Shown here piece by piece: positions 3,379-37,722 of a stretch of DNA of 38,020 bases; position 1 is the stretch's first letter; the number at the start of each line of letters is the position of its first letter. Made by a program: the position numbers and the translations under genes. This DNA is from Candidatus Zixiibacteriota bacterium (GTDB taxonomy: Bacteria; Zixibacteria; MSB-5A5; WJJR01). The notes beneath the pieces are model-generated. The model was not told the origin of the DNA. It worked only from the letters and a program-made list of their open reading frames with translations, and made no database searches. The stretch is from assembly GCA_036170655.1 (NCBI GenBank), contig JAVHPP010000033.1, forward strand, positions 17,010-55,029. Direction: 5' to 3'.

Positions 3379-3580
3379 GCCGGAGGCTTATATACGCCAA
3401 TGCCTTTTAACGTGTGTCCGGAACAACCGACAGACACGATATTTGCCCCGTGAACTCGTTGGCGGGTGGAGACAAAGCTGAAACCGTGAAGGCGGGGAAC
3501 TGTCGATGAGAAATCCGGTTGACGAAGTGTGTATCAGAGGCCAACGTCCCCTTCCCGCTGGGGCCGTCCCTTTCTTCGTC

Positions 3581-6373: not shown

Positions 6374-7559
6374 TTTCGCTTCCTCGCGGGCGCATTCCGC
6401 TTCGGTCCTCCGGCTTCTCGTCCGGGCACTGCTGGCCTTGGCGCTCATGATCGTTGCCGGGTGCGCGTCACGCCATGTCGCGTTGGTCCCAGGCCCACTT
6501 GGGGCGGGGGACTGGCCAATCCCTCGCGGGGACATCCAAAACCACGGCGTGTCCCGTCAGCCGCTGGTTTCCGATCAGGTCACGCGGCTTCTCTGGCGGC
6601 AGAAGCTCAGCGGCGTTGCCTCCACAGAACCAGTCGTCCGCGGTCAGCGCCTCTATCTGGCTACTCAGACTCGACGCCTGGAAGTGCGCGATCCGGCAAC
6701 TGGCCAGTGCCTCTCTCGCCTCCGTTTCAAAGGAGTTGTGGCTGGAATCATACCGACAGACTCGGGGCTAATCTTCACGATCGACCAAGACCAGAATCGG
6801 CTTGTGTGGCTGGTTGGCGATCCTCCATCTCAGGCGATTTCCGTCTCTATCCCGGTTGCTTCAACCGCGCCGCGATCCTTGCCTGATGGCTCCGTCATTA
6901 TCGGATCGTTCAACGGACAACTGTCGCGCTATGACTCGCTTGGGACAAGACTCTGGACCGTAGATTGCAAGGGACCAATCGACGCCACGCCATCGATCTC
7001 AGACTCGCTGCTCTATGTCTCGGCGGGACGGTTGGTCAGCGCGCGACGGATCAGCGACGGGCAACAGGTCTGGTCCCACCGTGCCTCAGGCGCCGTGATG
7101 GCCGCGCCGGCAATCGATGATCGCGCTTACTTCGGGTCCACGGACTCCCTCGTTTATGCGGTAAATCTTCAGACAGGTTCTTTGGCGTGGTTCTTCGCGG
7201 CGGGGGGGCAGATCGTCGCTTCCCCCACTGTCGGCTCAACGCGTGTCTTTGTGCCGGCGAACGACCAGCGCATCTACGCACTGGCCAAACAGACAGGGGA
7301 CACGGTGTGGACCCACCATACCAGCGCCCCGCTGAGTCGAGAGATGACGCTTGCCAGCGACCTCCTTCTGGTCGGCACACTCGACAGGAAGTTGCTTCTG
7401 ATCAACGCTATCGATGGCACTCTCGTCCGTGAGTTCGCCCTCGAAGGCGCCTGCGTGGCCCCCCCCGTGGTGGCTAACAATCGAGTCTATGTCTGTGACT
7501 CAAAACGATGGCTTTATTGCTTTGGCGCTGCACCAGAGCAAGATGTACCAGTGAAGTAA
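6345..7559 (+). CDS. PQQ-like beta-propeller lipoprotein (BamB-like)
   Basis: Lipobox LALMIVAG-C; repeated YFGSTDSLVYAVNLQTGSLAW-type blades. Start uncertain: in-frame TTG at 6345 (AGGA upstream) or 6357, overlapping the upstream gene end; ORF-track start 6126 is unlikely. Confidence 0.8.
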   Translation: MNSSLAGTSDFASSRAHSASVLRLLVRALLALALMIVAGCASRHVALVPGPLGAGDWPIPRGDIQNHGVSRQPLVSDQVTRLLWRQKLSGVASTEPVVRGQRLYLATQTRRLEVRDPATGQCLSRLRFKGVVAGIIPTDSGLIFTIDQDQNRLVWLVGDPPSQAISVSIPVASTAPRSLPDGSVIIGSFNGQLSRYDSLGTRLWTVDCKGPIDATPSISDSLLYVSAGRLVSARRISDGQQVWSHRASGAVMAAPAIDDRAYFGSTDSLVYAVNLQTGSLAWFFAAGGQIVASPTVGSTRVFVPANDQRIYALAKQTGDTVWTHHTSAPLSREMTLASDLLLVGTLDRKLLLINAIDGTLVREFALEGACVAPPVVANNRVYVCDSKRWLYCFGAAPEQDVPVK

Positions 7560-14575: not shown

Positions 14576-17503
14576 TCAGGGCGCGACGCATCCATTGACC
14601 AGCGCCAGCCCGCCCCGAAAGATGTAATTGATGATTGTCACGACATCCACGAGATTCAACCGGCAATCCCCATTGACATCGCCATTGTTCGGGTTCGTAA
14701 TCGAACCTTCGCGATACAAGTAGTCGATCAGCATGACCACATCGTCAATCTGCACCGATCCATCGCCGGTCAAATCTCCGGGAAACTCACGTGTCCACCC
14801 CAGGCGTGCCAAGAGTCTCGCAACGGTCTCCGCCGCATCAGTCTCGATCATGTACGACAAGGGAAAGGCCAGAATGGCGGTATGCACACCAGCCACCTTT
14901 GAGATCACGCCGACGGCTTTTCCATCCGATGGCGAAGCGGCGCCATCTCGGGATTGGTAGGTGTAGATCACCTCGGCTTTGGACGTATCAACCTCGAAGT
15001 ACCCGACAAACGGTATCGCATCTCCGGGCAATGGCAGCGCCGGATTTAGCCCCCACCCCGTGCGGGCCGGATCGACGGAGAGGTCAGGCAGCGGACTCAC
15101 GCGTGATTTGGCGCCAATGAACTCGGCGTTGGGACGCGTCGGATGGGACAGCAGCACGCGGGGATAGTAGGCGGCGGTGATCCCTATATTGTCGTAGGGC
15201 CAATCGCCGGGACCGAAGCGGATTGTGCCCTCCGTGATTGCAGCGGCATTGAAAAGATCACGCCCGGTCAGGATCGCAATCCCGCCCGCGTACTGATAGA
15301 GTGCAAGTTGGCTGGGTGTCTCCGGGCGCATTGCATAACGCCCGTCCGTCACGACAATCGTTGCCGGATGTGGATCATAGACGGCCAGTCCGAACGGCGG
15401 GGTCGTGACCGGATCGGCATCTCGGTACGCGGCTCCCAATGGCGACACAAGGCGTCTCCAGACAGCAGCCACCGAATCCTTATCGGTGAGTGAAGTCGGT
15501 CCGGAAAACGTCTCATCAATCACCAGCGGAAGGCCGTCAAATGCAAACGCGAGACCTTGCAGGGGCGCCGAAGGATAGCTCCCTGTGCCAAGCGCTGACA
15601 CCGCTTGGATCCGATACTCATAGACGACCGCGTTGTCCGCCGTCACGTCGGTATACGAAGAAAGAGCCGCCGTTTCTCCGATCTGGTCCCACGTTGATCC
15701 TCTGGTTCGCCGATCGACGCGATGAGAGACTATGTCCGGCTCTGTGGCCGGTTGCCAGTCGATGGTGATGGTTCTGTTCCCACGGTGGGCCGATAACAAC
15801 CGAGGCGTCAGCGGGCGATCCGGCAGCACGGCGATCACCGGCGAGGACGCCCCCAGCCGTCCCAGCGAATCGATTGAGCGAATCGTGTAGAAGTAGGTAT
15901 GCTCACGGTGCAAACCAGAATCACTGTATGACGAATCGCCGGGGGACAACGTGGCGATCGGCGGATCAAAGAACGATCCCGAATCGAGAGAGCGAAATAA
16001 TCCGTATCCGCTGAGCCGCTGAGTGCCTCTTGGATGCCACCGTATCTCCGCGGTCGAATCGTCCCATCCGGCGATGGCGAAGCCGGTGGGTGCACCGATC
16101 GTCGCATCATGAAACCGGCTGTCCCAGAGAACTTTCGTCCGTGCAAGGGCGGTATCCAGTGACGCGAAGTTCAACCCTGCCAGATAGGGCTGCGGCGCGG
16201 CCGCATCGAAAGTTGTCTGGAAGTGAGATGGGTCGGTATGGAACGATGGCGCCACAACGAGCGCCCACACTGCGACCACCGAATCTCCGGGGATGAGATC
16301 CACCGGCCCGTGTGTGAGCAGGAATCGCGTGTCGTACCCGTCGGCAAAGTCCTTCGCAATCGTGGCTGTCGTGGACGGAATCCATCCCTCCGCTGACTTG
16401 TCGATCGCCGCATCGACTTGGTCGTAGTCAATCTCCCGGTTCGCCATCCGCCGGTATTTCATCCGGTTGCCGATGGCACGGCCATATCCCCCGTAGATGT
16501 TGGTGTCGGAGGCCGCTTGTGAGGGCCCCCAGTCGTAAGCACGGGAAAACCCCGTGTTCCACCAATTGAACGATTCATCCCCCAGCACGGGCCGTCCCCC
16601 CAGATACATCATCCCCAGCACACCGGTCGGTGAACGGGCGTCAAACCCGCTGGCGCTGTCGGGATCGCCATCATTGTCCGCCGACCAGGCGGCAGCGACT
16701 TGCACGTCATGCCCGTCAATGGTTACAACCGCCGTGTGGTGCCCGGACAGATCCCCCAGCCAACTGTTTGGATGCGACGGATGCAGAATGTCGGCATCGA
16801 CGTACCACCCCAGCCACAGCCCCTTGATTGTCTGTGTCCCGATGTTGGTCACGACAATTTCCAGAACGATCCCCTTGTCGTGAGCGGAATCGTCGACGAG
16901 GCGTGTCGTTTGGCGGATGCGCACAGGCAATGACCGGTGCGTTCCATCGACCTGATCCGCCCGCACGATGGCGGGATCGGTGATCGTGTCGGTGTAATGC
17001 GCCGTCAATTCCTCATCCCCAAGCAGGTCGCCAAACTGCAACGCCCCATCGGCGCCGGGATGCAGCTCGTAAGTCGGCGGCCATTCGCTGGCGCCAGTGG
17101 AAACTAAGGTGTCGCCGCCGGCCACGCCTCCCACCCACAGCCCGGCGCTGAACAGATAGTCGATCTGAGAATGCGGCGGCGTTTCCAAACTGGGCGCGGG
17201 TAATGTGTCCGCAGAACCCAGAGTGCTCGAGTCGATCAGCGACGATATCTGCGCATTGCCAATCAACCCCCAATTCGTGATCGTCGTCCGCAAGTGCGAA
17301 TTGGCGTGAATGCGATACGACGGACCGGCGGTCGCGTCAGATGCAGATAGCGATGCGGCGCCGGCCCCATCTCCGTGGGAACCGGCCCACGCCTGCCGAC
17401 AGCATGGGTTGGCCAACACGCACACCACCACAAACACAGCCAACACAGGGCACAACATAAAGTTCGGCGGAGATGAACAATCTCCGCTCACAGAGCGGCA
17501 CAT
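14576..17503 (-). CDS. Secreted protein: uncharacterised N-terminal domain + 2 fibronectin type III domains + C-terminal dockerin
   Basis: Hydrophobic leader; FN3 signatures (W..P..LSGYGLFRS..YSDSGL..TYFYTIRS; YTDVTADNAVVYEYRIQAVS); duplicated GDLTGDGSVQIDDVV / GDVNGDCRLNLVDVV loops. Start may be 17458. Confidence 0.8.
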   Translation of the reverse strand: MCRSVSGDCSSPPNFMLCPVLAVFVVVCVLANPCCRQAWAGSHGDGAGAASLSASDATAGPSYRIHANSHLRTTITNWGLIGNAQISSLIDSSTLGSADTLPAPSLETPPHSQIDYLFSAGLWVGGVAGGDTLVSTGASEWPPTYELHPGADGALQFGDLLGDEELTAHYTDTITDPAIVRADQVDGTHRSLPVRIRQTTRLVDDSAHDKGIVLEIVVTNIGTQTIKGLWLGWYVDADILHPSHPNSWLGDLSGHHTAVVTIDGHDVQVAAAWSADNDGDPDSASGFDARSPTGVLGMMYLGGRPVLGDESFNWWNTGFSRAYDWGPSQAASDTNIYGGYGRAIGNRMKYRRMANREIDYDQVDAAIDKSAEGWIPSTTATIAKDFADGYDTRFLLTHGPVDLIPGDSVVAVWALVVAPSFHTDPSHFQTTFDAAAPQPYLAGLNFASLDTALARTKVLWDSRFHDATIGAPTGFAIAGWDDSTAEIRWHPRGTQRLSGYGLFRSLDSGSFFDPPIATLSPGDSSYSDSGLHREHTYFYTIRSIDSLGRLGASSPVIAVLPDRPLTPRLLSAHRGNRTITIDWQPATEPDIVSHRVDRRTRGSTWDQIGETAALSSYTDVTADNAVVYEYRIQAVSALGTGSYPSAPLQGLAFAFDGLPLVIDETFSGPTSLTDKDSVAAVWRRLVSPLGAAYRDADPVTTPPFGLAVYDPHPATIVVTDGRYAMRPETPSQLALYQYAGGIAILTGRDLFNAAAITEGTIRFGPGDWPYDNIGITAAYYPRVLLSHPTRPNAEFIGAKSRVSPLPDLSVDPARTGWGLNPALPLPGDAIPFVGYFEVDTSKAEVIYTYQSRDGAASPSDGKAVGVISKVAGVHTAILAFPLSYMIETDAAETVARLLARLGWTREFPGDLTGDGSVQIDDVVMLIDYLYREGSITNPNNGDVNGDCRLNLVDVVTIINYIFRGGLALVNGCVAP

Positions 17504-23588: not shown

Positions 23589-25967
23589 TTACCCGCCACA
23601 AGTGGGCATTCCTCCTCCTTGAAATACGTAGTCGATCAGCGCCACCAAGTCGAGCACGTCGTTGATGCTGTCACAGTTAATGTCGGCGATTCCCGGTGGC
23701 GTCGCCGGGGCGCCGCCCTGAAATACCATGTCGATCAGGAATGTCACATCCAGTACATCGATCGTCGCATCGTGGTTCAAGTCGCCGGTCTGTGCGCTGA
23801 CCGTCAACGTGCCAGCGGTGTAGCTCGGCGTGTAGGATGCAACGGGCGACGTGAATTGGAACGAATATGACCCCAATGGTCCGACACTGACATTGATCGA
23901 GTCGCCCACCAAATCATCCACGCGCGTGCGCAGCCACACTTTGGCAATCACACCAGAACCCGGTGCCAACGGGGGAGACCCTCCGCCGTTATTGGCTCTC
24001 AGCAGCACCGAGAGCTGGCCGGAGAACCGGTTGTCAAAGACTACCTGATCCAGTTCGAAATAAGCCGTGCGGCATCCTGTCGTGACGATCGAATCGAGAA
24101 ATCCCTTGTTCATGACATTCGATGCAATCACTGGCAGAGTCATCTCGGTCACTGGCTGGCTGTTGCGTGCCCAGATTTCGACAGCGACCGCACGCCCCGA
24201 CAGAGACGACGTGTCCCGTGCCAGCGCAGTGTCCGCCAGCGATGTCACGAAATTCGGCTTGATCTTCGTCCCCAGCCCGATTGCTGTTTGAATGCGCAGG
24301 GTGACACCGAAAAGGCCCGGGCCGTATGTATGTGCAGGGTTCTGCAGGGTCGACGTCGTGCCGTCGCCAAAATCCCATTCCCACGATGTCGCTGTGGTCA
24401 GCGAACTATCCGTAAATTGAACCGTCAGGGGAGCATTTCCGGTCTGCGGCGTGGCGATGAAATTCGCCGACGCAATGTTCTGGGTGCTGGCAAACGCGTT
24501 GATGCGTCCCGAGCCCAGAAGCCCGGCATACGAGGGATTGAGCGCGTCAATGTTGTCGGCGTTATTGACGATGATGTCAACGACCTCCTGACGTGTCAGC
24601 ACGGGATTCAACGAACGGATCAAGCCGACCAGCCCGACCACGTGCGGCGTCGCCATCGATGTTCCGCTGTAGAAAGCATAATCGGGGAAATAGTGGATTG
24701 ATACTGTACTGAGAATGTTGGAACCGGGCGCAGAGACATCCACCGCGGCGCCGTAGGTGGAAAAACTGGACTTCCGGTCCTGATTGGTGGTGGATGCTAC
24801 GCAGATGACATCGGGTCGGGATTGCAAATAGCCGAAACTCGAATTGTTGTCGTTCCCCGCCGCCGCGCAGATGACCAGCCCCGCCGCCACGGCATAGTCG
24901 GTCGCCGCCTCGATCCCGCCCCCAGTCGATGAGCCAAAACTGTAATTGATCCCCACGGCGCCGTTGTCAGCCGCGTAGCGAAATGCCTCCGCGACATAGC
25001 TCATGTGTGTGCGCCCGTTCTCAAATCCCCCGTCGTTGAACGAGTATCCCATGCGCAAACACATGAGCTTACAGCCCGGTTCGCTGAGTGGCCCGAACCC
25101 GCCGGCCACTCCAGCCACACCCTTGCCGTTATTGGTCACTGCCGCGATTGTCCCCGATGTATGAGTGCCGTGGCCGTTGAAATCTTTGGGATCATTGTCC
25201 TTGATTGACCCATCTTCGCCCGGCCAGACCGAAGACCCTCCCGACACAAAATCATACCCAATCAAGTCATCGACATACCCGTTCCCATCATCATCGATCC
25301 CGTTCATGTCGTCCGGGTCAAACACAACTCCATCGCTGTCTAAGTCCTCGCCGGGATTCACCCAGATATTGCTGGCCAGATCCTCATGCGTGTAAAGCAC
25401 ACCGGTGTCGGTATCGGCCAGAGTGGTATTGGGATTCCCGACAGTGCGATCCCACGCTTCCGGTGCATCAATGTCCTTGTCCGTAATCTGGCTGAGTCCC
25501 CACATCTGAGAGAAGTTCGGATCGTCTGGTGTCCGCATGATATAGGCGTAGAAATCGTATTCGACCGAAGCGACTTGGGGATCGCTCTGGTAATCGGCTG
25601 CCGCGCGGTCCAGATCGACGGCCGGATCGAACTCGAGCACATGGTATCCCCGCAGATCGGGCTTGTTCGAGGGAGCAGGAACAGGCCTGGCGCCGGGGAA
25701 GAGCGGCCGATACCGCTGCAACCCGTACCGGACGCTAAGTGCGTCGACACTGGCAATGCCCGTGACCCGGTCACCAAGACCCCGCTTCGACGCGATCGGC
25801 AAGGCGCCGGTCTTGAAGTTCACGATCAGCACTCCCGGTATGCGCTCATCCTGCGCCGAATGGACACTTATGCGATCAAGGGCACGCCCTTGCGAAGGCA
25901 CAGACACGAGAAGTGCAATCGCGGACCCCGCAAGAACCGTAGCCAACAGGGCTCTCATTCTGGTCAT
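23589..25967 (-). CDS. Secreted S8 subtilase with prodomain, PKD, cohesin-like and dockerin domains
   Basis: Triad motifs DTDTGV, NGHGTHTSG, SGTSMATPHV and oxyanion AAGN; PKD WEWDFGDG; terminal GDLNHDATIDVLDV / ADINCDSINDVLDL; GAGGTGG RBS before ATG 25967. Confidence 0.92.
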   Translation of the reverse strand: MTRMRALLATVLAGSAIALLVSVPSQGRALDRISVHSAQDERIPGVLIVNFKTGALPIASKRGLGDRVTGIASVDALSVRYGLQRYRPLFPGARPVPAPSNKPDLRGYHVLEFDPAVDLDRAAADYQSDPQVASVEYDFYAYIMRTPDDPNFSQMWGLSQITDKDIDAPEAWDRTVGNPNTTLADTDTGVLYTHEDLASNIWVNPGEDLDSDGVVFDPDDMNGIDDDGNGYVDDLIGYDFVSGGSSVWPGEDGSIKDNDPKDFNGHGTHTSGTIAAVTNNGKGVAGVAGGFGPLSEPGCKLMCLRMGYSFNDGGFENGRTHMSYVAEAFRYAADNGAVGINYSFGSSTGGGIEAATDYAVAAGLVICAAAGNDNNSSFGYLQSRPDVICVASTTNQDRKSSFSTYGAAVDVSAPGSNILSTVSIHYFPDYAFYSGTSMATPHVVGLVGLIRSLNPVLTRQEVVDIIVNNADNIDALNPSYAGLLGSGRINAFASTQNIASANFIATPQTGNAPLTVQFTDSSLTTATSWEWDFGDGTTSTLQNPAHTYGPGLFGVTLRIQTAIGLGTKIKPNFVTSLADTALARDTSSLSGRAVAVEIWARNSQPVTEMTLPVIASNVMNKGFLDSIVTTGCRTAYFELDQVVFDNRFSGQLSVLLRANNGGGSPPLAPGSGVIAKVWLRTRVDDLVGDSINVSVGPLGSYSFQFTSPVASYTPSYTAGTLTVSAQTGDLNHDATIDVLDVTFLIDMVFQGGAPATPPGIADINCDSINDVLDLVALIDYVFQGGGMPTCGG

Positions 25968-26055
25968 TTCCACCTCAGGAATCAGTATAGCCACACTCAG
26001 TTCTCTGTACCCGCAGCAGACAAGACGTGGAATTCGAAAAGTAAACCACTGGTCG

Positions 26056-26521: not shown

Positions 26522-29500
26522 GTGCGTTCAGTAGTCGTCCCTGTTCTGGCCAGTATTGTCACGTTGATCTTCTCCTCGCCGTCGTTGATGGCAGGAGAAT
26601 ACGATGATGTTCAGGTTCTTTCCGCCTCTTCCTTGGAAATCGCTTTTGTTTATCGTCCGGGGCCGTTGTCTTGGTCCATGGACGAAGCGGGCGCCTATCC
26701 ACAGATTCCCGCGTGCGCGGTAGGCCGACTTACGGGGTATCCTGCAATCCCCGGCCGTCTTGTCTACATCGCCGTTCCCCCCGGTTGCCAGAACGTCAGC
26801 GCCACTGCTGAACGGATCACGGCGCGCGACGAGGGGCAGCATCCGCTCACTCCAGATGATCTTGCTGCTGCTGTATTGTTTCCCTATCCGGAACAACTTG
26901 TGCTGGTTGATCCCCTCTTTACTCTCCGGGGGCTCAAGATTGCACGGCTGACGCTGCACCCGTTCACGTACGAGTCGGCCGACGGACGATACTCTGTCAT
27001 GGGTGAGATGACGATTCGCGTTCATTTTGAAGTCACGGGGAGTCTCGGCGCCCCCCCGCCGGGTCAACTGACAGATGCGTTCTCCGGCATATTCCATGAG
27101 ATCATCCTGAACGCCGATCAGGTCTCGGATTGGCGGGTGACGGGTGAAGAAAGTCTCGCCAAACCCGCCGCCGCCCCTGATCCCTTCGCGGGGGCCGATC
27201 ACTGGCTCGCCATTAGTGTCCACACGGGCGGCGTTGTTCGTATCATCCCGGAGGACTTGTCACGGGTTGGCATCGACTTGGCTGCCGTGACGCCGTCATC
27301 GTTCCGTCTTTTTTCCGGTCCCGGCCGCCAGCTCTCCACACGGATGTCGGATCCCCCGCCGGCGCTCACCGAGATTCCGATTTTGATCCGCGGCGGTGAC
27401 GACGGCCGTTTTGATGGCGCCGATGAAATCGAGTTCTACGCGCAGGGACTCAATCGTTGGGAAATGACACCTGATGGCCGGCTCACCGATGTGGTCCATC
27501 GCTACGACCGCGACAACGTCTATTGGCTCTCGCTGGATGGCAGCTTCTCCAGGCCGCCGCAACGTCTGGTGGCAGTGGCCGCCACGGAACCGTCTGCTGC
27601 CGCCCCCGTGTACGTGTCGGGACGCTCCCGCGCCCGCCATGAGAGGGATAAGATTCTTCGCGTCGATGGTCTTGGGTACGTGGGCTCATACTATACTTGG
27701 TATTGGCAGAATCTCCGGACGGCGCAGCTCTTCTCATACGCCGTAGATCAGGCGGAGCCGGGTGCGCCCGCCCGCTGGGAAATCAGCGCCCACGCCGGCC
27801 GCGTACGCTTGCTGGAGGACGGCGCCGTCGTTCCAACTGTGAATGTCCCGTTCGGTAATGGCGAAGACGGTGCGGTCATCACCGCCTTCGATCTCGCCTC
27901 CTTCAACCCGGGCGCCCGGTTCGACCTCGTCTTCGACTCCAGTGGTTCCGAGAATTACTATCTTGATTATTACAGTCTTGATTACCAGCGTCGTCTGACG
28001 CTTGCGTCCAGCGCCATCCAGTTCGCATCGCCGGATACGAATGCGGTTCTCACTCTGGCGGTTGCTGATGTGACCACGGGTTCGGTCTGGGATGTCACAG
28101 ACTCCGCCAATCCGTTCATTGTGGACAGCCTGACCCGGTCGGGGAATGTCGTGCGCTTCGGCGTCGATCAGGAGGGCGGCGCGCGCCATGTGTACTACGC
28201 CTTCGAACCATCCCAGCGTCAGCGTCCGTCCCAAGTCCGGCTCATGATCCGTCCCGATCTCTATGCCCCCGTGGCGCCGGCCGATTACCTCGTCATCGGC
28301 CCGCGGGTGTTCCAGCAGGCGTCGTCGTCGTTTATGACCTATCGGGCGAACCATGATGGCTTGTCCGTCCGATACGTGCCCGTCGAGGACATCTACGACG
28401 ACTTTTCCCTTGGTGTGGCCGATCCAGTCGCGATTCGCCGCTTCTTGCGATATGCGTATCAGAACTGGCCCCGGTCGGCGCACGGCTCTCCGGCATATGC
28501 GCTGCTCCTGGGCGATGGCACCTATGACTTTCTCGATAATTCCGGAGCCCACGCGGTCAATTATGTTCCTCCCTATATCGCGTCCGATGACAACTCCGCT
28601 GCGGATGAGAACTATGTCTACTTCGGCGACAAACAGGTGCTCAATTCGGAAGGCGATCGCCCCGCCAATCCGTTCTCGGATATGATCATCGCGCGCTGGC
28701 CGGTGAAGAATGCCGCGCAGATTCAGGCGATCACGTCCAAAATCACCCGCTATGAATCGCCGGAAAATCTCGGCCCGTGGCGTTCACGCGTCATGCTCGT
28801 CGCCGACGATGAGTTCGGCGACCGGGAGAGAAATTCAGTAGATGAGGACTTCCACGTCCGCAGCGCGGAGGAAATCGCCCACGGGTTCATCCCCTCGCGC
28901 TTCGACCTGCAGAAGATCTATCTGACCGAATATCCGTTCAATAATCCCGGCTGTGAACTGCCCGCCGCGCGCGGCTGTCGCAAGCCCGCGGCCAAGGAGG
29001 CGATTGTCGCGGGTCTGAACGATGGCGTGCTGGTATTCGACTATATTGGGCACGGCAACCCGGATTTGCTCGCCCACGAGCGTGTCTTCGAACGCGCGGT
29101 TGACCTGCCGCGCCTGACCAATGCCGGCATGCCCACGGCGGCCCTCACCTTCTCCTGCTCGATCGGCTTCTTCGACGATCCATCGTCCGAGGGCATGTCC
29201 GAGGAATGGCTGCGCATGCCGGACGCCGGCGCAGTGGCCGTCGTCTCCGCGACTCGTCTGGTAACAGCGGGCGCGAATGCCGCTCTCAACGAAAAAGTCT
29301 TCGATCTGCTCTTTAATCGTCAAATGACAGGGATTGGCGCGGCGTTGTACACAGGCAAGGTCCTCCGCCAGTATTTTGCCAATTGCACGAATTGCGGTCA
29401 GCCTCCCTGCCCCTGTCCCAACGACCGCCGGTATGTGCTCTTTGGCGATCCGGCGATGAAACTCGGCAATCCCACGCTGAAAGTGGACTTTGATTCCCTC

Positions 29501-30517
29501 CAGCCGGAAACGCTGTCGGCGCTTTCACTGACCCAGGTGCACGGCCGCATCACCGATTCGACCGGGGCGCTGGATGGTGGATTTAATGGCGCTCTTACCG
29601 TCACGGTCCGCGACGCACCGCGCCAGAGAATCTATCGCATCAACGACGCACTCTCGGTCAACTATGATCTGGCGGGAGGCACTCTCTATCGTGGAGAAGT
29701 TGCCATCACGGGTGGCCGGTTCCAGTTCGGCTTCGTCGTGCCCAAGGATATTGCTTATGGCCAGCGTGGCGCCACCATTCTGGGTCATGCCAGTTCACTG
29801 AACCAGATGGCCGGCGGTGCGCGCGATTCCCTGTTCATTGCCGGTTCCAGCGGTGTCGTAACGGACACGGCGGGGCCGCAAATCGAAGTACAGACGGCGG
29901 ACGGACGGGCCCTTCTCGATGGGATGGCCCTGCGGGAAGGGACAGAACTGGTGGCCATGATGCACGACACGTCGGGGATCAATCTGACCGGCGCCCCGGG
30001 GCACAGCCTTGAAGTCTTTGCCGATGAGCAAGCCCGTCCGCTGGCAGACCTCACCGGCCTGTTTACCTATGATCCGGGAGGCTTCCGCCGCGGCCACGCG
30101 CAGTTCGCGCTGACCGGTCTCGCGAAGGGACTCCACAGACTGCGGGTCAAGGCCTGGGACAACGCAAACAACTCGTCTGTCAAGACGATTGATCTTGAAA
30201 TCAGTGACCAGCCCGAATTTCGTGTCAGTGAGTTCCTGAATTATCCGAACCCGTTCTCCGTTCAGACCAAATTCTACTTCCGGCCAGCTGTTGACCGGGC
30301 CACGATTCGCCTGTTTACACTAAGTGGCCGACTGATTCGGTCTCTTGACGGGGTTCGTGACGGAGAGACCCTCTGGGATGGAACCGACCAGGAAGGCGAT
30401 CCGGTTGGTAACGGGGTTTACCTCGCCCAGATCGAAATTACGGACCGTGTGGCCGAAGGGTCCCGGCAGGTCGATAAAACAGCACACAGGGAAATCAAAG
30501 TCGTTGTCTCCCGATAA
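26522..30517 (+). CDS. porU: Type IX secretion sortase PorU (peptidase C25) with propeptide and T9SS CTD
   Basis: C25 motifs EDIYDDFS..DPVAIRRFL, LLLGDGTYD, YIGHG (His), TFSC (Cys), LFGDP; PorU-like FVVPKDI and VKAWDNANNSS; CTD NYPNPF..IRLFTLSGRLI..WDG..NGVYL; immediately upstream of porV. Confidence 0.88.
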   Translation: MRSVVVPVLASIVTLIFSSPSLMAGEYDDVQVLSASSLEIAFVYRPGPLSWSMDEAGAYPQIPACAVGRLTGYPAIPGRLVYIAVPPGCQNVSATAERITARDEGQHPLTPDDLAAAVLFPYPEQLVLVDPLFTLRGLKIARLTLHPFTYESADGRYSVMGEMTIRVHFEVTGSLGAPPPGQLTDAFSGIFHEIILNADQVSDWRVTGEESLAKPAAAPDPFAGADHWLAISVHTGGVVRIIPEDLSRVGIDLAAVTPSSFRLFSGPGRQLSTRMSDPPPALTEIPILIRGGDDGRFDGADEIEFYAQGLNRWEMTPDGRLTDVVHRYDRDNVYWLSLDGSFSRPPQRLVAVAATEPSAAAPVYVSGRSRARHERDKILRVDGLGYVGSYYTWYWQNLRTAQLFSYAVDQAEPGAPARWEISAHAGRVRLLEDGAVVPTVNVPFGNGEDGAVITAFDLASFNPGARFDLVFDSSGSENYYLDYYSLDYQRRLTLASSAIQFASPDTNAVLTLAVADVTTGSVWDVTDSANPFIVDSLTRSGNVVRFGVDQEGGARHVYYAFEPSQRQRPSQVRLMIRPDLYAPVAPADYLVIGPRVFQQASSSFMTYRANHDGLSVRYVPVEDIYDDFSLGVADPVAIRRFLRYAYQNWPRSAHGSPAYALLLGDGTYDFLDNSGAHAVNYVPPYIASDDNSAADENYVYFGDKQVLNSEGDRPANPFSDMIIARWPVKNAAQIQAITSKITRYESPENLGPWRSRVMLVADDEFGDRERNSVDEDFHVRSAEEIAHGFIPSRFDLQKIYLTEYPFNNPGCELPAARGCRKPAAKEAIVAGLNDGVLVFDYIGHGNPDLLAHERVFERAVDLPRLTNAGMPTAALTFSCSIGFFDDPSSEGMSEEWLRMPDAGAVAVVSATRLVTAGANAALNEKVFDLLFNRQMTGIGAALYTGKVLRQYFANCTNCGQPPCPCPNDRRYVLFGDPAMKLGNPTLKVDFDSLQPETLSALSLTQVHGRITDSTGALDGGFNGALTVTVRDAPRQRIYRINDALSVNYDLAGGTLYRGEVAITGGRFQFGFVVPKDIAYGQRGATILGHASSLNQMAGGARDSLFIAGSSGVVTDTAGPQIEVQTADGRALLDGMALREGTELVAMMHDTSGINLTGAPGHSLEVFADEQARPLADLTGLFTYDPGGFRRGHAQFALTGLAKGLHRLRVKAWDNANNSSVKTIDLEISDQPEFRVSEFLNYPNPFSVQTKFYFRPAVDRATIRLFTLSGRLIRSLDGVRDGETLWDGTDQEGDPVGNGVYLAQIEITDRVAEGSRQVDKTAHREIKVVVSR

Positions 30518-30685: not shown

Positions 30686-33343
30686 ATGCGACGGATGAAA
30701 CTTCTGATGATTCTGGTGATCTTTGGGGGCATACTGGTCGGCCCAAGCGAGAGCGAAGCGGCGGTCAATGCCGGTGTGCTCTTCTTGCGCATCGCTGCGG
30801 GTGCGCGCGCCGCCGGCATGGGGGAAACCTTCGTCGGCCAAGCCAACGATGCCACCGCGACGCACTGGAACCCGGCCGGGCTGGGCGACTACCCGTTGAA
30901 TAGTCAATGGGATGAATTCCTCCTCCCGTCGTATGGCTCCGTCCGCGATGCCGCCATGATCAAGAACGGCCTGCCCTACGAGGGACCTGCCGCCTACGAT
31001 CTTTGGATCCTCACCGATCAAGGACTGCTTGTTTTCGGAGCGACTGACGCGGGCAAGGAAACTCCGTCCACCGATTCTTCAGCAGCCGGAAACGCGCTCA
31101 TTGCTAAATCACGATTCTCTAATTTCATCAAGATCACGACGGCGGGTGCGACCAGCGTATCGGGAGCCATCCGCCGTTACGCTCCGTTTCTGTCGGAGGC
31201 GCAGGCCGACGACATCGCCGCCCGGTCGGCGGCGCAGCTCCTTGGCATGTCCAGCGCCGGGATCGAATCGCTGCTGACACGTCTGACTGAGGCGATCCCG
31301 TCTGACTACAAGGACCGGACCGCCCTCGAGACTGTCCTTCGTGACTTCCGCACCGGCTATCGCGAAGCACGACTCGACAAGGAAAGGATCGGCGAGTTGC
31401 GTCAGGCGTTGGCGGCCCTGCCGCCATCTGGCCCGGCCGATCTCGAGGCGCTGGACCGTGTCCGCTTCTCGATGCAACGAAGCCTGACCAACCAGATTCC
31501 CCCATCTGTCGATGTTGCTTTCAGCGGCTTGTTTACTCCGCCCATTCGCGCTATTGGCGGCGATGGGTCGCGTCTCTATGTCGCATTCGGCGACCAGTTC
31601 GTGATGTTCGACGGGACAGCCTGGGATGCCATCGCGCCTCCTTCTGAACGCGGATGGTCGGATGAAGCTGTCAACTGCATCGAAATTACCAGTGGGCCGC
31701 GCCTCTGGCTGGGGACGGATCACGGGGTGCTGTCGCGTCTTTCCGGGGATTGGAAACGCTATGGGCTGAATGAGGGCCTTCCGGGTGAGAAGGTGACCAA
31801 GCTCGCCTTGAGCGGCAGCCGGTCCGGCTGGGTCCTGACGGACGCGGGTCTCGCGGCATTGAGCGACTCGACGTTCTCTGGCAGCGTCGCGCTGACGGCC
31901 AACGTCGGTGATTCGTTGTCGAGCATGTTGCGCCGCTTTTTCGACACCGATGACGATGTCTTTCTGGCACGTGCCGAGAAGCGGGTCATCTCCGTCAATG
32001 GCTTGAGCGAGGGCTACGTGCCCGAACCGGCAACCACTGTCAGGGTACCGTATCAACTGGGCATCCGTGGCGAGGTCACCGCGTTGGCGCTCGACAATTA
32101 CCAGCGTCTCTGGGTGGGAACGACGCTCGGCGCCCTTCGCTTTTCTCAGGGCCGCTGGTCGGCGCCGGGGTATGTCAAAGTCGTTTCTGACGAAGCGACC
32201 ACGGCGAAGACGCTGGCGGAAAAGCAGCTCGGTTCACGCGCGACACCTGAGCGCATCGATCATTTTGCGCGCATTATTGCCGGCTACAATGGACTCGGAG
32301 AAGATGGCAGCATTGAAGCGGGCCGCACCGTCTACGTGTACCGCAATCCCGCGGCCGCCCAAGTCAACGCCATGGTGGCGATTGGCGACCTGTTTTTCGT
32401 CGCCACGGACGCCGGGCAGTTGCAGGTGAAATCCGGCGACTGGAGCCGTTACTACCACCGCAATCTCGAACGCGATCAGGTGAGGGCCATCGCTGCCCAG
32501 GGACGCGACGTCTGGTTTGTCACAAACGACCGGGTCGTCGTCTATATGCAGCCGCACAAGGAAGTGACCTTGATGCACGCCAACTGGCTGCCCGAACTGG
32601 CGCCGGACATCTACTATGAATATCTCTCGTACGTGAGCCACGTCGAAGGGTGGGGGACACTGGGTGCGGCGGCGACGTTCCTTTCCTACGGCGAAATCCT
32701 GCGGACCGATGAACGTGGCCAGCCCGGCAATTCATTTCACTCGTTCGATGGTGCTTTCTCTCTGTCCTATGGCACCCGTCTCAGCCCCAATCTGGCCGGT
32801 GGTCTGTCCGCGAAGGTCATCTATTCCCGCTTGGCAGATCAGGGCGCCGGACGGGAGGTTGGCAGCGGCAGCGCCACCGCATTCGCCATGGATGCTGGCT
32901 TGCTCTATCACACGCCGTGGCGCAAGCTGACTCTGGGGATGGCGCTGACGAATGTCGGTCCCAACATTTCGTACATCGACGCGCAGCAATCCGATCCTCT
33001 GCCGCGCAATCTGGCCTTAGGGTTCGCCTGGCGGGTTGTGCAATCCCCCTACAACCGCATCACGCTGGTGGGCGAACTCAACAAGGAACTGGTGAACCTC
33101 GGCGGAGGAGGGGGATCCGAGCTGAAGCAAATTATTTACAATGTCGGCGCGGAATACTGGTACGGTTCTTTTATCGCGCTCCGGGGCGGCTACATTTACG
33201 ATCAGGACGGCAGCATCAGGACGCCGACACTGGGCGCCGGGCTGTCATATCAGCGGTTTGAGATCGATTTCGCTTATATTCCCTCGACACATGACACGCC
33301 GCTGTCAAACACACTGCGCGTCAGCATGACGGGGCGGTTCTGA
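30686..33343 (+). CDS. porV: PorV-family outer-membrane barrel with a large internal insertion (propeller blades + LysM-like repeats)
   Basis: PorV N-terminus FLRIAAGARAAGMGE..NDATATHWNPAGL; barrel HANWLPEL..DIYYEYLSY, KVIYSRL, AFAMDAG, TNVGPNISY..DPLPRNL, GAEYWY..LRGGY, LSNTLRVSMTGRF; AAGGA RBS before ATG 30686. Confidence 0.85.
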   Translation: MRRMKLLMILVIFGGILVGPSESEAAVNAGVLFLRIAAGARAAGMGETFVGQANDATATHWNPAGLGDYPLNSQWDEFLLPSYGSVRDAAMIKNGLPYEGPAAYDLWILTDQGLLVFGATDAGKETPSTDSSAAGNALIAKSRFSNFIKITTAGATSVSGAIRRYAPFLSEAQADDIAARSAAQLLGMSSAGIESLLTRLTEAIPSDYKDRTALETVLRDFRTGYREARLDKERIGELRQALAALPPSGPADLEALDRVRFSMQRSLTNQIPPSVDVAFSGLFTPPIRAIGGDGSRLYVAFGDQFVMFDGTAWDAIAPPSERGWSDEAVNCIEITSGPRLWLGTDHGVLSRLSGDWKRYGLNEGLPGEKVTKLALSGSRSGWVLTDAGLAALSDSTFSGSVALTANVGDSLSSMLRRFFDTDDDVFLARAEKRVISVNGLSEGYVPEPATTVRVPYQLGIRGEVTALALDNYQRLWVGTTLGALRFSQGRWSAPGYVKVVSDEATTAKTLAEKQLGSRATPERIDHFARIIAGYNGLGEDGSIEAGRTVYVYRNPAAAQVNAMVAIGDLFFVATDAGQLQVKSGDWSRYYHRNLERDQVRAIAAQGRDVWFVTNDRVVVYMQPHKEVTLMHANWLPELAPDIYYEYLSYVSHVEGWGTLGAAATFLSYGEILRTDERGQPGNSFHSFDGAFSLSYGTRLSPNLAGGLSAKVIYSRLADQGAGREVGSGSATAFAMDAGLLYHTPWRKLTLGMALTNVGPNISYIDAQQSDPLPRNLALGFAWRVVQSPYNRITLVGELNKELVNLGGGGGSELKQIIYNVGAEYWYGSFIALRGGYIYDQDGSIRTPTLGAGLSYQRFEIDFAYIPSTHDTPLSNTLRVSMTGRF

Positions 33344-33369
33344 TCTTGGACGGGAATAGCGCAAGTGAG

Positions 33370-36300
33370 ATGAGCAGAATCGCTTGGAAGGTTGGTGTCA
33401 CGGTTCTCCTCTTGGGGAGTTCTGCCGCTTGGGCGGCAGCCGGTCCATCGGCTTCGGTCCTGCCCTTGCATCATGATGCATTGGTCGTGGAATCACCGCA
33501 GGCATCGGAACGTCTCCGGTGCTTTTGCCCGACGCCGTCCACCCGGAATCTGCTCCAATTGGAGCGGCCCGATGTCTTCAAACCGGGCATCCGCACTGCC
33601 AGCGCCAAGACCGCTGGCCCCCTCAAGATTTTGGGTATTCGCGTGGAATTCCCGCTTGAAGGAGCCGATGATTTGCTGACCACAGGCCAGGGCCGGTTCG
33701 ATATGCGCGACACGGCAGCCTACTTCGAGGCCACCGGCCATCACTTCGATAGCGCACCCCATGGCCGCCTTTACTTCGAGGCGCATCTGCGCGCGCTGCA
33801 CCTCTACTGGGCAACAGTCTCCAACGATCAAGTGACTCTCGAAGGAACGGTCTTTCCGCGCGCGGCCGACAGTGTCTACCAGCTGCCGCCGGACAGGCCC
33901 ATGTCCTTCTATGGCCGTGAACGGACCGGCGACAGCGGCGTGACTTTTGGTCTGCGGCAATTCGTCATTGACGCCGCCACGTCGGCATCGGCGAGCGACC
34001 CGGCGCTCCGCTTCAGCGACTACGACGCGGTGATCATCTTTCATGCGGGTTCGGATCGTCAGTCGGACATCCTCCAGGACTCTCCCCGCGACTTGTTCAC
34101 GGGCTTTCTCCGGTTGGACAGCACGCTCTATCTTCGTTCTGGGACTGACTCCCTCGTCGAGGCGATCATCATGCCCGAGACCGAAATCCAGGATGGCCGC
34201 ATCACCGTCCTCAACGGTGTCATGGCGCATGAATTCGGTCATCAATTGGGCTTGGTCGATTTGTACAACACGCGCAACTTCATGACCCAGATTGGCAACT
34301 TCAGTCTGATGGACAACAACGCGTCGGATGTCGGCGTCCGTGCCGCGGTCAGCGGACGGGAGCGGATCATCTTCGGTGCGCTGCCGGTCTTTCCCGATGC
34401 CTGGTCACGGGCGTATTTGGGTTTTGTCAGCGTGACCACGGTCACCGATTCGTCCCGAGTGCCGGTTCCGACGGCCGAACGATTCTCTCTTGTGCCACAA
34501 TCGTTCTCACAAGTGCTCCGTGTCCCGATTTCCTCCACCGAGTACTACCTGGTGGAGAATCGCCGCACCGATATCGATGACTTGGGTGATCCGGGGCTGC
34601 GTCTCGATTCAGTCACCAATGTCGTTCTGGAGCCCGTCGATACCAGGGTCGTGCTCCCCAGCCGTGAGTACGATTTTCTCCTGCCGGGCAACGGGCTTCT
34701 CATCTGGCACGTCGATGAAGGGGTGGCGTCTCTGGACTATGCGACGTCCGACGACGTCCGCAACAACTTTCTGGCCAACACGCTTCAGTGGGACCCGCAT
34801 CGCCGTTTTGTTCGCCTGATCGAAGCCGATGGCATCGTCAATTTCGGTGGATACTATTCGTCCGGGACAGGGACATCACGTGACTATTTCTTCGACCCGA
34901 ACAAACGGGAACTCTCGGCCAGTACCAATCCGCCCGCTGTGAGCAACACCGGCGGGGCCACGGGGATTCGCCTTTTTAATATCTCGGGCCCTTCGAACGA
35001 TATGAAATTTGATGTCACTGTCACCGGACGCCTCCCCGGCTTCCCGGTTTACACGGGTCCTGAACGCAGCGACGCGGCTGCGCCCGTCGTTACGGACATC
35101 ACTCTCCGATACGGTGAATGGATGTATCCCGGCGATGGCCATCCGGAGATTTTCACTGCATATCATCAATATATTCTGGGATGGAATTGGAACGGCACAC
35201 CGATCGGGATGACCGAAGTGCCGGACACCGTGGTGACGTTCGACACCAGCCGTGTCGTTGATACGCTCGCGATCGTCGCTGAGGGCGCGCCCGATGACTC
35301 CGGCTGGATTGCGCCTCCGATGGTTGGTGATTTCGATGGCGAAGGCGGAGCCGAATTGGTCACGGTTTCACGAACCGGACGGGTCTACCAATGGGTCATG
35401 GCCGATCGTGATTCCAATGGCCTGTTCGATCTCAAACGGGTTGCGCAGACGACGGGCAGACCCGTCGGCCCCCCGGTCATTCTCGAACAGAACGCCCCAT
35501 TCAAAAAACTCCTCGTTCCCGTTGAGGGCTCGCACTACGATCTGATCAGTCTGACGACGGATACGTCGAGCACCCACTCTCTGCCCGGCGCGCTTCGCGG
35601 TGTCGCCGGTCGCAACGATTACGAAGCAATCGGTGTGTTTCGGACCGTCGACAGCGTCTGGCTCGTTGGTTCCATCTTTGATGCACTGAAGCATGTCGCC
35701 ATAGAGGCCGAGTCCCTCTTGACGCCGGCGTTGGGCGATCTCAACCATGATGGCAAAATCGAGGCCGTCGTCCTCGATGTCGGCGGGCGCCTCTGGGCCC
35801 TGGATACCGCAGCCTTCGCTCCGCTGGATGGCTTCCCGGTCCGACTTGACTATGCCCCGGTTACGTCGCCGGTTCTCGCCGATCTCAATCGTGATGGCTA
35901 CCTCGATATCATCACGGCTGGCGGGGGAGCCATATACGCGTATGCGCACAACGGCGCTCTCCTGCCGAACTTCCCGGTCACGATTGGACAGAGCAATATG
36001 CCCGACACTGCCGTGGCGACTCCCGTCGTGGGCGATTTTGGTGAAACTTCGCTCTTGAGCCTGATCGCGGGGGGAAGCAATCGTGCCGTGTATGGATTTG
36101 CCGGCAACGGCCGGGAAGAGGGCGGCTTTCCGTTGGCCGTGGGGGGAGAGGTAGATGCTCCCCCGGCGCATGCCATCAATGCTGCGGCCAATCAGGCGGC
36201 CGTGTTCACGCGGGCTGCCGATGGGTATCTCTATGCCTACGAAGTCCCCATGGCCGCTTCTCCCTCGCAGGCAGTCTGGCCCATGGCATCCCATGATCCC

Positions 36301-36642
36301 CTGCGCACGGCAACAGTTCCACCAGAAGACTTGGACCCGAAGCAGACCTATGCCCAGTTCTTCGCGCCCGAAAAGGCCTTTGTCTATCCGAATCCGGCAC
36401 AGGACAGGGCCATCGTCCGCTACTGGCTCGGCGATGACGCTGATGTCCATATCAAGATCTTTGATCTGGCGGGAAATCTCGTGCGCGAGACCGATGGGCC
36501 GGGCACCGGCGGCGCGTACAACGAATGGACATGGGAATGCGCCACGGTGGCGTCCGGCGTGTACTTTGCCCATCTTGAAGTTGTCTCCAAGTCCAGTGGG
36601 CGCCACGAGACTGCGCTATGCAAATTGTCGGTTGTCCAATAG
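33370..36642 (+). CDS. Secreted M6 (immune inhibitor A-like) metallopeptidase + FG-GAP repeats + T9SS CTD
   Basis: IIFHAG, HEFGHQLGLVDLY (HExxHxxGxxD), Met-turn FSLMD, EYYLVENR, GLLIWHVD; GDFDGEG, GDLNHDG, ADLNRDG repeats; CTD FVYPNP..IFDLAGNLV..ASGVYF. Start 33370 (or TTG 33346). Confidence 0.85.
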   Translation: MSRIAWKVGVTVLLLGSSAAWAAAGPSASVLPLHHDALVVESPQASERLRCFCPTPSTRNLLQLERPDVFKPGIRTASAKTAGPLKILGIRVEFPLEGADDLLTTGQGRFDMRDTAAYFEATGHHFDSAPHGRLYFEAHLRALHLYWATVSNDQVTLEGTVFPRAADSVYQLPPDRPMSFYGRERTGDSGVTFGLRQFVIDAATSASASDPALRFSDYDAVIIFHAGSDRQSDILQDSPRDLFTGFLRLDSTLYLRSGTDSLVEAIIMPETEIQDGRITVLNGVMAHEFGHQLGLVDLYNTRNFMTQIGNFSLMDNNASDVGVRAAVSGRERIIFGALPVFPDAWSRAYLGFVSVTTVTDSSRVPVPTAERFSLVPQSFSQVLRVPISSTEYYLVENRRTDIDDLGDPGLRLDSVTNVVLEPVDTRVVLPSREYDFLLPGNGLLIWHVDEGVASLDYATSDDVRNNFLANTLQWDPHRRFVRLIEADGIVNFGGYYSSGTGTSRDYFFDPNKRELSASTNPPAVSNTGGATGIRLFNISGPSNDMKFDVTVTGRLPGFPVYTGPERSDAAAPVVTDITLRYGEWMYPGDGHPEIFTAYHQYILGWNWNGTPIGMTEVPDTVVTFDTSRVVDTLAIVAEGAPDDSGWIAPPMVGDFDGEGGAELVTVSRTGRVYQWVMADRDSNGLFDLKRVAQTTGRPVGPPVILEQNAPFKKLLVPVEGSHYDLISLTTDTSSTHSLPGALRGVAGRNDYEAIGVFRTVDSVWLVGSIFDALKHVAIEAESLLTPALGDLNHDGKIEAVVLDVGGRLWALDTAAFAPLDGFPVRLDYAPVTSPVLADLNRDGYLDIITAGGGAIYAYAHNGALLPNFPVTIGQSNMPDTAVATPVVGDFGETSLLSLIAGGSNRAVYGFAGNGREEGGFPLAVGGEVDAPPAHAINAAANQAAVFTRAADGYLYAYEVPMAASPSQAVWPMASHDPLRTATVPPEDLDPKQTYAQFFAPEKAFVYPNPAQDRAIVRYWLGDDADVHIKIFDLAGNLVRETDGPGTGGAYNEWTWECATVASGVYFAHLEVVSKSSGRHETALCKLSVVQ

Positions 36643-36705
36643 GAGCGTGTTGATCCTGTTCGAAACGGAATTGATCAACTTCGCGAAAACACGGGAGGTA
36701 TGCAA

Positions 36706-37722
36706 ATGATTCACTCACCACACACAGGGAAAACGGGATGGACCGTTCTGGCGTTCCTCATCGGCGCCGTGTCTCTCGCGCAGATATCGCCGGCCGCCGC
36801 GGCGCGGCGTGACGCCGGCCCGGCAAACCCGCTGGCGGGCATTACCGTTGATGATCTGTCGTCCCAACGCATGCTTGTCACGACCATGGTCATGACCGGT
36901 GACAGGTCGCTCTATACAGACAATGACGAGTCATCCGATGCCGGACTCTATGCCTATGAATCCAAATCCCCCAAGCGGGCTTTTCTCCAGTCGGTGCTGA
37001 TCCCCGGCTGGGGGCAGTGGTACAACGGTTCACGCATCACTCCATTTGTCTTCCTCGGTCTCGAAGCGGCCGGATGGCTCGGCGTCAGCCATTTCCACAG
37101 CAATGGCAACCAGAAGCAGGGCAAGTACCAGCGATTCGCCGACGATGACTCATTGGGATGGGACTACAGCCTTTACAACCATGCGTTGCAAGTTGTGTAC
37201 GGCGTCGACAGTGACACGTCGAAGTACCTGAACCCTGAGTGGGTGAAGTGTCAGACCGACCCGAACTGTCAGGATGTACCCCCGCAGTATATTCCGTGGT
37301 CGCACCACGTGTTCGACGATGGCAATGGGAATCCGATCAAGAACCAGACATACTATGAGAACATCGGGAAGTACGACCAGTTCGCATTCGGCTGGCGGGA
37401 TTACAACGACACCGACAGCAACGGGATCGGGACGCCGCCCACGAAGCCACAGGATACGGTCGGTGTCAGTTACATCACTCAGAATCGCAGGAACTATCTG
37501 AACCAGCGGGCCAGCGCCAACCGTGAGTTCAGCCGGGCCTCGACAATCCTGATCCTCACCATCAGCAACCACCTGATTTCGGCCTTCGAAGCCGCGATTG
37601 GTGCCAATCGGCATAATAGGTCGCTTGATCAATTCGGCGCGGTTGATGCGCACATGAGTCTGGTCCGTTCGCAGACGACCGGCAACCTGATGCCCAACAT
37701 GACCCTGAACTACCGGTTCTGA
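36706..37722 (+). CDS. DUF5683-like exported/membrane protein
   Basis: Signal peptide; KSPKRAFLQSVLIPGWGQWYNG motif; YYENIGKYDQF; NHLISAFEA; ends LNYRF. GGAGG spacing favours ATG 36706. Confidence 0.7.
   Translation: MIHSPHTGKTGWTVLAFLIGAVSLAQISPAAAARRDAGPANPLAGITVDDLSSQRMLVTTMVMTGDRSLYTDNDESSDAGLYAYESKSPKRAFLQSVLIPGWGQWYNGSRITPFVFLGLEAAGWLGVSHFHSNGNQKQGKYQRFADDDSLGWDYSLYNHALQVVYGVDSDTSKYLNPEWVKCQTDPNCQDVPPQYIPWSHHVFDDGNGNPIKNQTYYENIGKYDQFAFGWRDYNDTDSNGIGTPPTKPQDTVGVSYITQNRRNYLNQRASANREFSRASTILILTISNHLISAFEAAIGANRHNRSLDQFGAVDAHMSLVRSQTTGNLMPNMTLNYRF

Follow-up and report, generated by a model that had tools for sequence, protein, structure and literature searches.

We analyzed a window of 38,020 nucleotides (the whole stretch of DNA considered here) from a Candidatus Zixiibacteriota bacterium, contig JAVHPP010000033.1, which encodes an unusual form of PorV, the outer-membrane carrier protein of the T9SS (type IX secretion system). 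In this protein of 885 amino acids (aa; P0001), a module comprising a β-propeller and three LysM-like units lies between the N-terminal hatch and the barrel. The gene starts at an ATG (position 30686) preceded by a purine-rich stretch resembling a ribosome-binding site, and its features are as follows:

30686 to 33343, plus strand: porV ortholog with insert, 885 aa (open reading frame [ORF] in one stop-free frame; profile and structure matches)
30686 to 30760, plus strand: likely Sec signal peptide, residues 1–25 (sequence pattern and alignment with homologs, without a predictor)
30761 to 30886, plus strand: hatch of PorV/FadL type with the NPA motif (WNPAGLG) at its end; pairwise identity averages 0.76
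30905 to 32548, plus strand: seven-bladed Reg_prop-type β-propeller, residues 74–621, closed by strand 74–79 (Pfam, AlphaFold, fold search)
31040 to 31108, plus strand: variable, low-confidence loop rich in Ser, Thr and Ala, about residues 119–141 (absent in many homologs)
31121 to 31522, plus strand: LysM-like unit 1, residues 146–187 and 270–279, split by a helical bundle (model, profile comparison)
31247 to 31483, plus strand: four-helix bundle inside LysM-like unit 1 (in 68 of 78 non-redundant homologs)
31883 to 32053, plus strand: LysM-like unit 2, residues 400–456, between blades 4 and 5 (model, homolog Pfam matches, profile comparison)
32171 to 32344, plus strand: LysM-like unit 3, residues 496–553, between blades 5 and 6 (model, profile comparison)
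32561 to 33343, plus strand: 14-stranded PorV barrel ending in Phe (AlphaFold model; Z 36.0 to 6h3i_F)

The protein passed the PorV/PorQ family profile NF033709 (252.6 bits, cut-off 90) and scored below the cut-off of the PorV equivalog NF033710 (186.3 bits, cut-off 250). Against the latter, three short syntenic orthologs reached 152–271 bits, while the seven short PorV-family paralogs in the genome, one of them a PorQ-like ORF, reached at most 74. Because of this gap, the long protein is, as judged from the NF033710 ranking, the best PorV candidate and the sole true PorV ortholog of its genome. Flavobacterium johnsoniae PorV aligned to it in two separate stretches, the N-terminal block and the barrel, and both the hatch with its NPA motif and the 14-stranded FadL-type barrel were recovered by alignment, AlphaFold and fold searches, the barrel matching PorV 6h3i_F with a root-mean-square deviation (rmsd) of 3.2 over 299 residues. 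Extracellular loops 1 and 2 were collinear with N87 and F115 of F. johnsoniae PorV, two residues named in a passage of PMC10994853.

In a tree of the barrel only (quick method, 82 rows, without five loci that were truncated or odd, one truncated paralog and F. johnsoniae PorV), long and short PorV orthologs grouped apart from the paralogs with a Shimodaira–Hasegawa-like approximate likelihood ratio test (SH-aLRT) support of 98. Since all 40 long forms fell on one side of a single branch inside the PorV orthologs (SH-aLRT 91, not starred), the tree is consistent with one gain of the insert. The phylum name used in the analysis follows record labels on homologs; several long-form records carry the labels Ignavibacteria or Acidobacteriota, and those labelled Ignavibacteria nest within the Zixibacteria-labelled clade. 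The same tree paired two related short PorV-family paralogs (L114 and L115; G000 C3 and C141) with a support of 97. The first immediately follows a 1065-aa frame that has a C-terminal match resembling the T9SS C-terminal domain (CTD), and the two are possible dedicated carriers. A 661-aa PorV-family ORF in an Endomicrobiales-labelled record (L074:6001-7983) is longer than usual without containing the insert of the long PorV, and family members of 600–660 aa like it occur in several of the searched genomes.

The sequence-only reading that preceded this work had placed the split between WNPAGLG and KEVTLMHANW, and these coordinates proved exact, with the former ending at residue 67 (base 30886), the latter starting at residue 625 (base 32558) and 557 aa between them in one open frame. 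Because short orthologs keep only about 5 hinge residues (with small insertions in Calditrichaceae and Kapabacteria), the net insert amounts to about 550 aa, located where a hinge connects the NPA hatch to strand 1 of the barrel. A query with the insert retrieved 27 other proteins combining a PorV domain with a strong insert match, three of them labelled Zixibacteria, and PorV parts flanked the insert in at least 52 further representatives among the 150 listed (50% clustering). Among 257 genomes (completeness 80% or more) from the phylum of the window, the best match reached E ≤ 1e-180 in 244, a threshold exceeding the ceiling of short PorV (455 bits) and of the barrel alone (490 bits). Inspection of the 13 lower-scoring genomes revealed the insert in 12, their frames carrying additional indels or being cut off by the end of a contig, and the remaining one (81% complete) had no PorV ortholog match at all. 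The insert is thus kept in 256 of 257 genomes, and the long form is the standard PorV of the phylum, a fact that the first reading had missed. An assembly chimera was ruled out, as both junctions are found again, in open frames, throughout the phylum.

PorV without the insert was found in every sister lineage sampled, and a search of five short-PorV genomes, not a wide one, for a stand-alone homolog of the insert returned only generic single-blade matches. The success of the sister lineages without the insert, together with its low sequence conservation, would suit a mostly neutral, tolerated passenger that became fixed when the phylum was young. Such a passenger is very improbable given the retention in 256 genomes, the sole miss being the incomplete genome without any PorV ortholog match, and given that all seven blades are retained in 77–78 of the 78 non-redundant homologs.

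AlphaFold modeling of the 885-aa protein with an 82-row alignment yielded a confident structure (predicted local distance difference test [pLDDT] 90.9; predicted template modeling score [pTM] 0.87) comprising the barrel, a propeller and three LysM-like units. The Reg_prop-like blades read earlier from the sequence were borne out by a Pfam match at residues 463–479 (22.5 bits, cut-off 20.4) and by closure of the seven blades in the model. Structural comparison revealed similarity to the BT3049 sensor propeller (3v9f; Z 22.1; 275 residues at rmsd 3.6). Propellers of the sensor or WD40 kind scored Z 20–22 over model residues 73–623. An ESM Atlas search gave no usable match.

The modeled barrel has 14 strands, ends at its last residue, Phe885, and displays short turns after even strands and long loops after odd ones. 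Since by the general rules of barrel turns and loops the short turns face the periplasm, strand 1 (residues 626–633), which begins four residues past the last propeller strand, would start on the periplasmic side, and the propeller/LysM module would lie in the periplasm, as had been proposed; the hatch topology is based on the model and on general knowledge of FadL barrels. By strand order, the junction of barrel and propeller is at the c–d position of blade 7, and the three LysM-like units occupy d–a loops. As d–a loops and the c–d position lie on opposite faces of a propeller, the units are expected to face the peptidoglycan and not the membrane.

This topology also bears on the idea of the insert as a PorZ fusion, which the sequence-only reading had raised along with a replacement of PorZ, or else as a surface lectin module delivering lipopolysaccharide or binding outside glycans. 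Reg_prop-like blades are common to PorZ and the insert, the insert gave a weak match to NF052228 (E 0.001, 17.6 bits), and the PorZ N-propeller of Pfam matched in 7 of 57 homologs. These matches span one blade and fall far under the 260-bit cut-off, and the insert combines a single propeller with a periplasmic topology and no CTD. Moreover, the source genome encodes a separate 800-aa PorZ-like ORF with a CTD and a PorQ-like ORF, and PorZ-like genes occur in at least 40 of 61 phylum genomes that are at least 95% complete, none of them reaching the curated cut-off (14 candidates per genome were scored). An identity as PorZ or as a surface lectin is therefore hardly credible.

The β-α-α-β order in the model (residues 147–278, 400–455 and 496–552) fits LysM in all three units; fold searches, dominated by the barrel, the propeller or the bundle, brought up no LysM structure. 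Two homologs exceeded the Pfam LysM cut-off of 20.9 bits (P0080, 39.6 bits; P0083, 35.7 bits), and the best stretch of both matches aligns with unit 2. When 28 homologs were scanned singly, two were above the cut-off and four just under it, and among 57 divergent members 27 matched at E ≤ 10 (best E 5e-10). Profile comparison by hhalign linked unit 2 to unit 3 at 98.5% and to unit 1 at 96.5%; against canonical LysMs, with a template of three sequences from the same genome, it gave 97.1% for unit 2, 96.5% for unit 3 and only 51% for unit 1. LysM signature positions were conserved across the 78 non-redundant homologs (N535, 97%; G546, 93%; Gly at position 449, 80%; D409, 69%), and 102 of 110 full-length homologs contained three unit matches, with more in 3 and fewer in 5, some of these odd counts being partial or missed matches. 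The units are thus LysM homologs by an argument that runs through their relatives and not from P0001 by itself. The two LysM-like units noted originally correspond to units 2 and 3; unit 1 had been missed, and the helical segment seen at the time is real and sits within it.

This segment (residues 190–266) folds confidently together with unit 1 (pLDDT 92.5), and in homologs that do not contain the bundle unit 1 is intact. Searches with the bundle were uninformative, the best fold matches being APH(2'')-Ib (Z 6.7) and the Zuotin four-helix bundle (Z 6.6), with nothing at E ≤ 0.001 in Foldseek and nothing under E 0.19 in a PDB sequence search. A DG-L-S-E pattern in the bundle is reminiscent of EF-hand or TerB loops; no such match surfaced. 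The module itself varies in extent: blade, LysM and bundle are duplicated in P0085, P0088 and P0091 (about 1050 aa), P0085 having four units by reading; L072:5851-8889 shows up to five LysM matches; and the bundle or whole units are lost in P0082, P0123, G241 and G242.

The porV gene is accompanied by the following neighbors:

26522 to 30517, plus strand: porU sortase (NF033707, 627.7 bits, cut-off 420)
33346 to 36642, plus strand: M6-like metalloprotease / FG-GAP / type A CTD protein (adjoins porV in long and short lineages)
36700 to 37722, plus strand: DUF5683 protein (domain match; locus comparison)

The porU product displays C25, GHG and SCS motifs and a C-terminal CTD, and porU lies upstream of the long porV in 41 of 42 loci. 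The M6-like gene follows porV in 37 of 42 long loci (the misses of both genes in long loci lie at contig ends) and in 30 of 38 short loci, and this position in 67 of 80 loci suggests a system component and not ordinary cargo. Its product retains an intact HEFGH zinc motif, and its best NCBIfam match is an 'inactivated' model (340.6 bits, cut-off 600). The DUF5683 gene was found behind the cluster in 27 of the 42 long-PorV loci and in none of the 38 short-PorV loci at a blastp cut-off of 1e-8, at which divergence may hide it; its product, which ends in Phe, is a candidate partner of the PorV insert.

Elsewhere in the window, positions 3506–6373 encode a 955-aa single chain joining a peptidase MA-like domain, a PD40/TolB propeller and an Omp85 barrel, followed by a PQQ/BamB-like propeller gene (6126–7559). 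Two secreted proteins with dockerin-like C-terminal ends, an fn3 protein (14576–17503) and an S8 protease with PKD (23589–25994), are encoded on the minus strand. Directly before the window, the contig contains a run of N bases (L108, about 16900–17010) after a glycosyltransferase gene.

Outside the window, sprA is located on the same contig as porV, and SprA was above its cut-off in all 61 genomes of the T9SS set. GldM and GldN were found in none of the 61 at E ≤ 1e-4, a threshold that very divergent forms could escape (GldK and GldL were not searched for); the controls in Bacteroidota genomes worked, with 15 of 61 above cut-off for GldM and 2 of 2 for GldN. PorP/SprF was likewise found in none of the 61, with a control that matched in Bacteroidota. 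SprA, PorU and PorV co-occur without detectable GldM or GldN in the 61 phylum genomes and also in the short-PorV genomes G257–G261, G322, G324 and G326. None of the six OmpA-domain ORFs of the source genome (245–423 aa) is of the PorE type. The earlier proposal that the insert replaces PorE amounts to an analogy, the two sharing no homology other than the presence of a propeller. By sequence reading, the genome also encodes MurB-like, Pal-like and MltD-like peptidoglycan proteins.

A universal SprA alongside missing GldM and GldN, with positive controls working, could mean that the insert is a handle by which an inner-membrane energizer, such as a motor of the ExbBD/TonB or Tol type, pulls PorV with its cargo away from SprA in place of GldLM–GldKN, and the module is big enough to reach into the periplasm. 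We consider this improbable: the short-PorV genomes were also negative (GldM in 0 of 5, GldN in 0 of 3; controls matched), so that the power source appears independent of the insert, neither sprA nor porV has a motor-like gene next to it on the contig, and LysM units would fit a moving part poorly. The same negatives weaken the notion of the insert as compensation for motor loss.

Taken together, the periplasmic topology, the LysM homology and the phylum-wide retention lead us to propose that in a Zixibacteria T9SS the long PorV is the operative form, with a built-in cell-wall anchor, and that its insert probably acts as a reversible, multivalent peptidoglycan tether positioning PorV and PorU near SprA. 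From what is known of the family, we infer that the LysM units bind glycan strands containing N-acetylglucosamine weakly and additively. The propeller would serve as a spacer, and the LysM units would keep PorV and PorU, its partner on the surface, in set positions close to the SprA translocon. The outer loops of the barrel would still capture type A CTD cargo, whose hand-over to PorU would be local and not via long-range shuttling. Such a tether, which the sequence-only reading had offered as one possibility, could do the positioning job of two structures of Bacteroidia: the PorKN ring, on which the attachment complex of Porphyromonas gingivalis sits (passage of PMC12365241), and PorE, proposed to anchor PorP or cargo to the cell wall (passage of PMC12618676). 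A LysM-like domain binds sacculi in FimV, according to a passage of PMC12918733.

Several observations weigh against this proposal. P0001 itself gave no match to Pfam LysM (PF01476), and only 3 of its 27 close relatives matched at E ≤ 10. Unit 1 is degenerate in P0001, with Leu185 replacing the conserved Asn; the helix linker of all units is about 9 residues longer than in canonical LysM; the units have diverged as much as the blades (identity 0.24–0.25); and some homologs have only two of them. The assignment of propeller faces follows strand order and not model coordinates. A motor-less system evidently does not need the insert, since short-PorV lineages are also without GldM and GldN. Finally, in the F. 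johnsoniae model given in a passage of PMC10994853, energy pulls cargo-loaded PorV off an immobile SprA, a withdrawal that a tight tether would hinder.

The degenerate LysM signatures of the long-PorV subfamily would suit an insert that is mainly a protein-docking scaffold. Its propeller, bundle or LysM-fold units would then bind SprA on its periplasmic side or some other partner (in the place of SprE/SkpA), and glycan binding would be weak or lost. Propellers are often docking platforms, and the DUF5683 gene accompanies long-PorV loci only. Contact on this face has a precedent in the F. johnsoniae extended translocon, where SkpA touches the periplasmic face of PorV (passage of PMC10994853). 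A fixed interface is, however, difficult to reconcile with the absence of a highly conserved patch (identity 0.23–0.33 for the blades and 0.48 for the barrel among the non-redundant homologs) and with units that vary from two up to four or five, which additive, low-specificity binding fits better, and we regard the scaffold as rather unlikely. Beyond the tether itself, a tentative and somewhat doubtful extension is that the Zixibacteria T9SS is stationary: without GldLM/GldKN, its sole PorV, fixed to peptidoglycan by LysM, would form with SprA and PorU a permanent secretion-and-attachment station from which cargo is released without carrier travel.

A targeted literature search, with subscription journals and supplements outside its scope, found no description of the long PorV or of a Zixibacteria T9SS, and in databases the protein carries no name other than 'PorV/PorQ family protein' or 'hypothetical protein'. 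A 2024 review (PMC11285876) considers other phyla of the Fibrobacteres–Chlorobi–Bacteroidetes (FCB) group as possible T9SS carriers, in a passage that leaves Zixibacteria unnamed. The phylum-wide PorV variant is real and apparently undescribed. As PorV is modeled as a carrier pulled off SprA by a proton-driven motor, a wall-binding PorV in a phylum where GldM and GldN were not found would challenge the generality of that model, and it offers a concrete test object for carrier positioning and cargo release outside Bacteroidia. For an outer-membrane barrel the protein is also built unusually, a predicted periplasmic module of several domains separating plug and barrel, and it makes a clean marker of the phylum. 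If the stationary arrangement were true, PorV shuttling and the rotary motor would have been added to a simpler core in particular lineages, and this T9SS would be a minimal one for reconstitution.

Compared with known systems, the long PorV shares with Bacteroidota PorV (F. johnsoniae, PDB 6h3i/8gl6 chain F; PF19572, NF033710) the NPA hatch, the 14-stranded FadL-type barrel (Z 36.0), collinear cargo-binding loops, the porU neighbor and SprA in the genome. It differs in the approximately 550-aa propeller/LysM module, predicted to be periplasmic, at the hatch–barrel hinge, and its genome differs in having no detectable GldM, GldN or PorP. The short PorV of KSB1, Calditrichota, Marinisomatota, Latescibacterota and Kapabacteria (record labels) belongs to the same barrel clade (SH-aLRT 98 against the paralogs), and these lineages share the downstream M6-like gene (30 of 38 loci) and, in the few tested, the failure to find GldM and GldN, whereas their hinge spans about 5–20 residues. 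The PorE–PorP pair of P. gingivalis, in which a lipoprotein with TPR, WD40 and CRD domains plus OmpA_C (domain list in a passage of PMC12773672) sits on a T9SS barrel, would be similar, if the tether holds, in placing a periplasmic propeller and a peptidoglycan-binding domain under a carrier barrel. PorE is, however, a separate lipoprotein with OmpA_C in place of LysM that serves the type B carrier PorP; P0001 matched neither TPR nor OmpA domains, and no homology to PorE was seen beyond the possession of a propeller. PorZ resembles the insert in its Reg_prop-like blades and T9SS context, and differs as a CTD-bearing surface protein on PorQ that is separately encoded in the source genome. Finally, the LysM anchors of FimV/HubP likewise use periplasmic LysM-like units to position a machine on peptidoglycan, and TsaP is a further LysM anchor of an envelope machine. 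Those proteins are associated with the inner membrane or a secretin, whereas in the long PorV a propeller within the chain of an outer-membrane barrel carries the three units.

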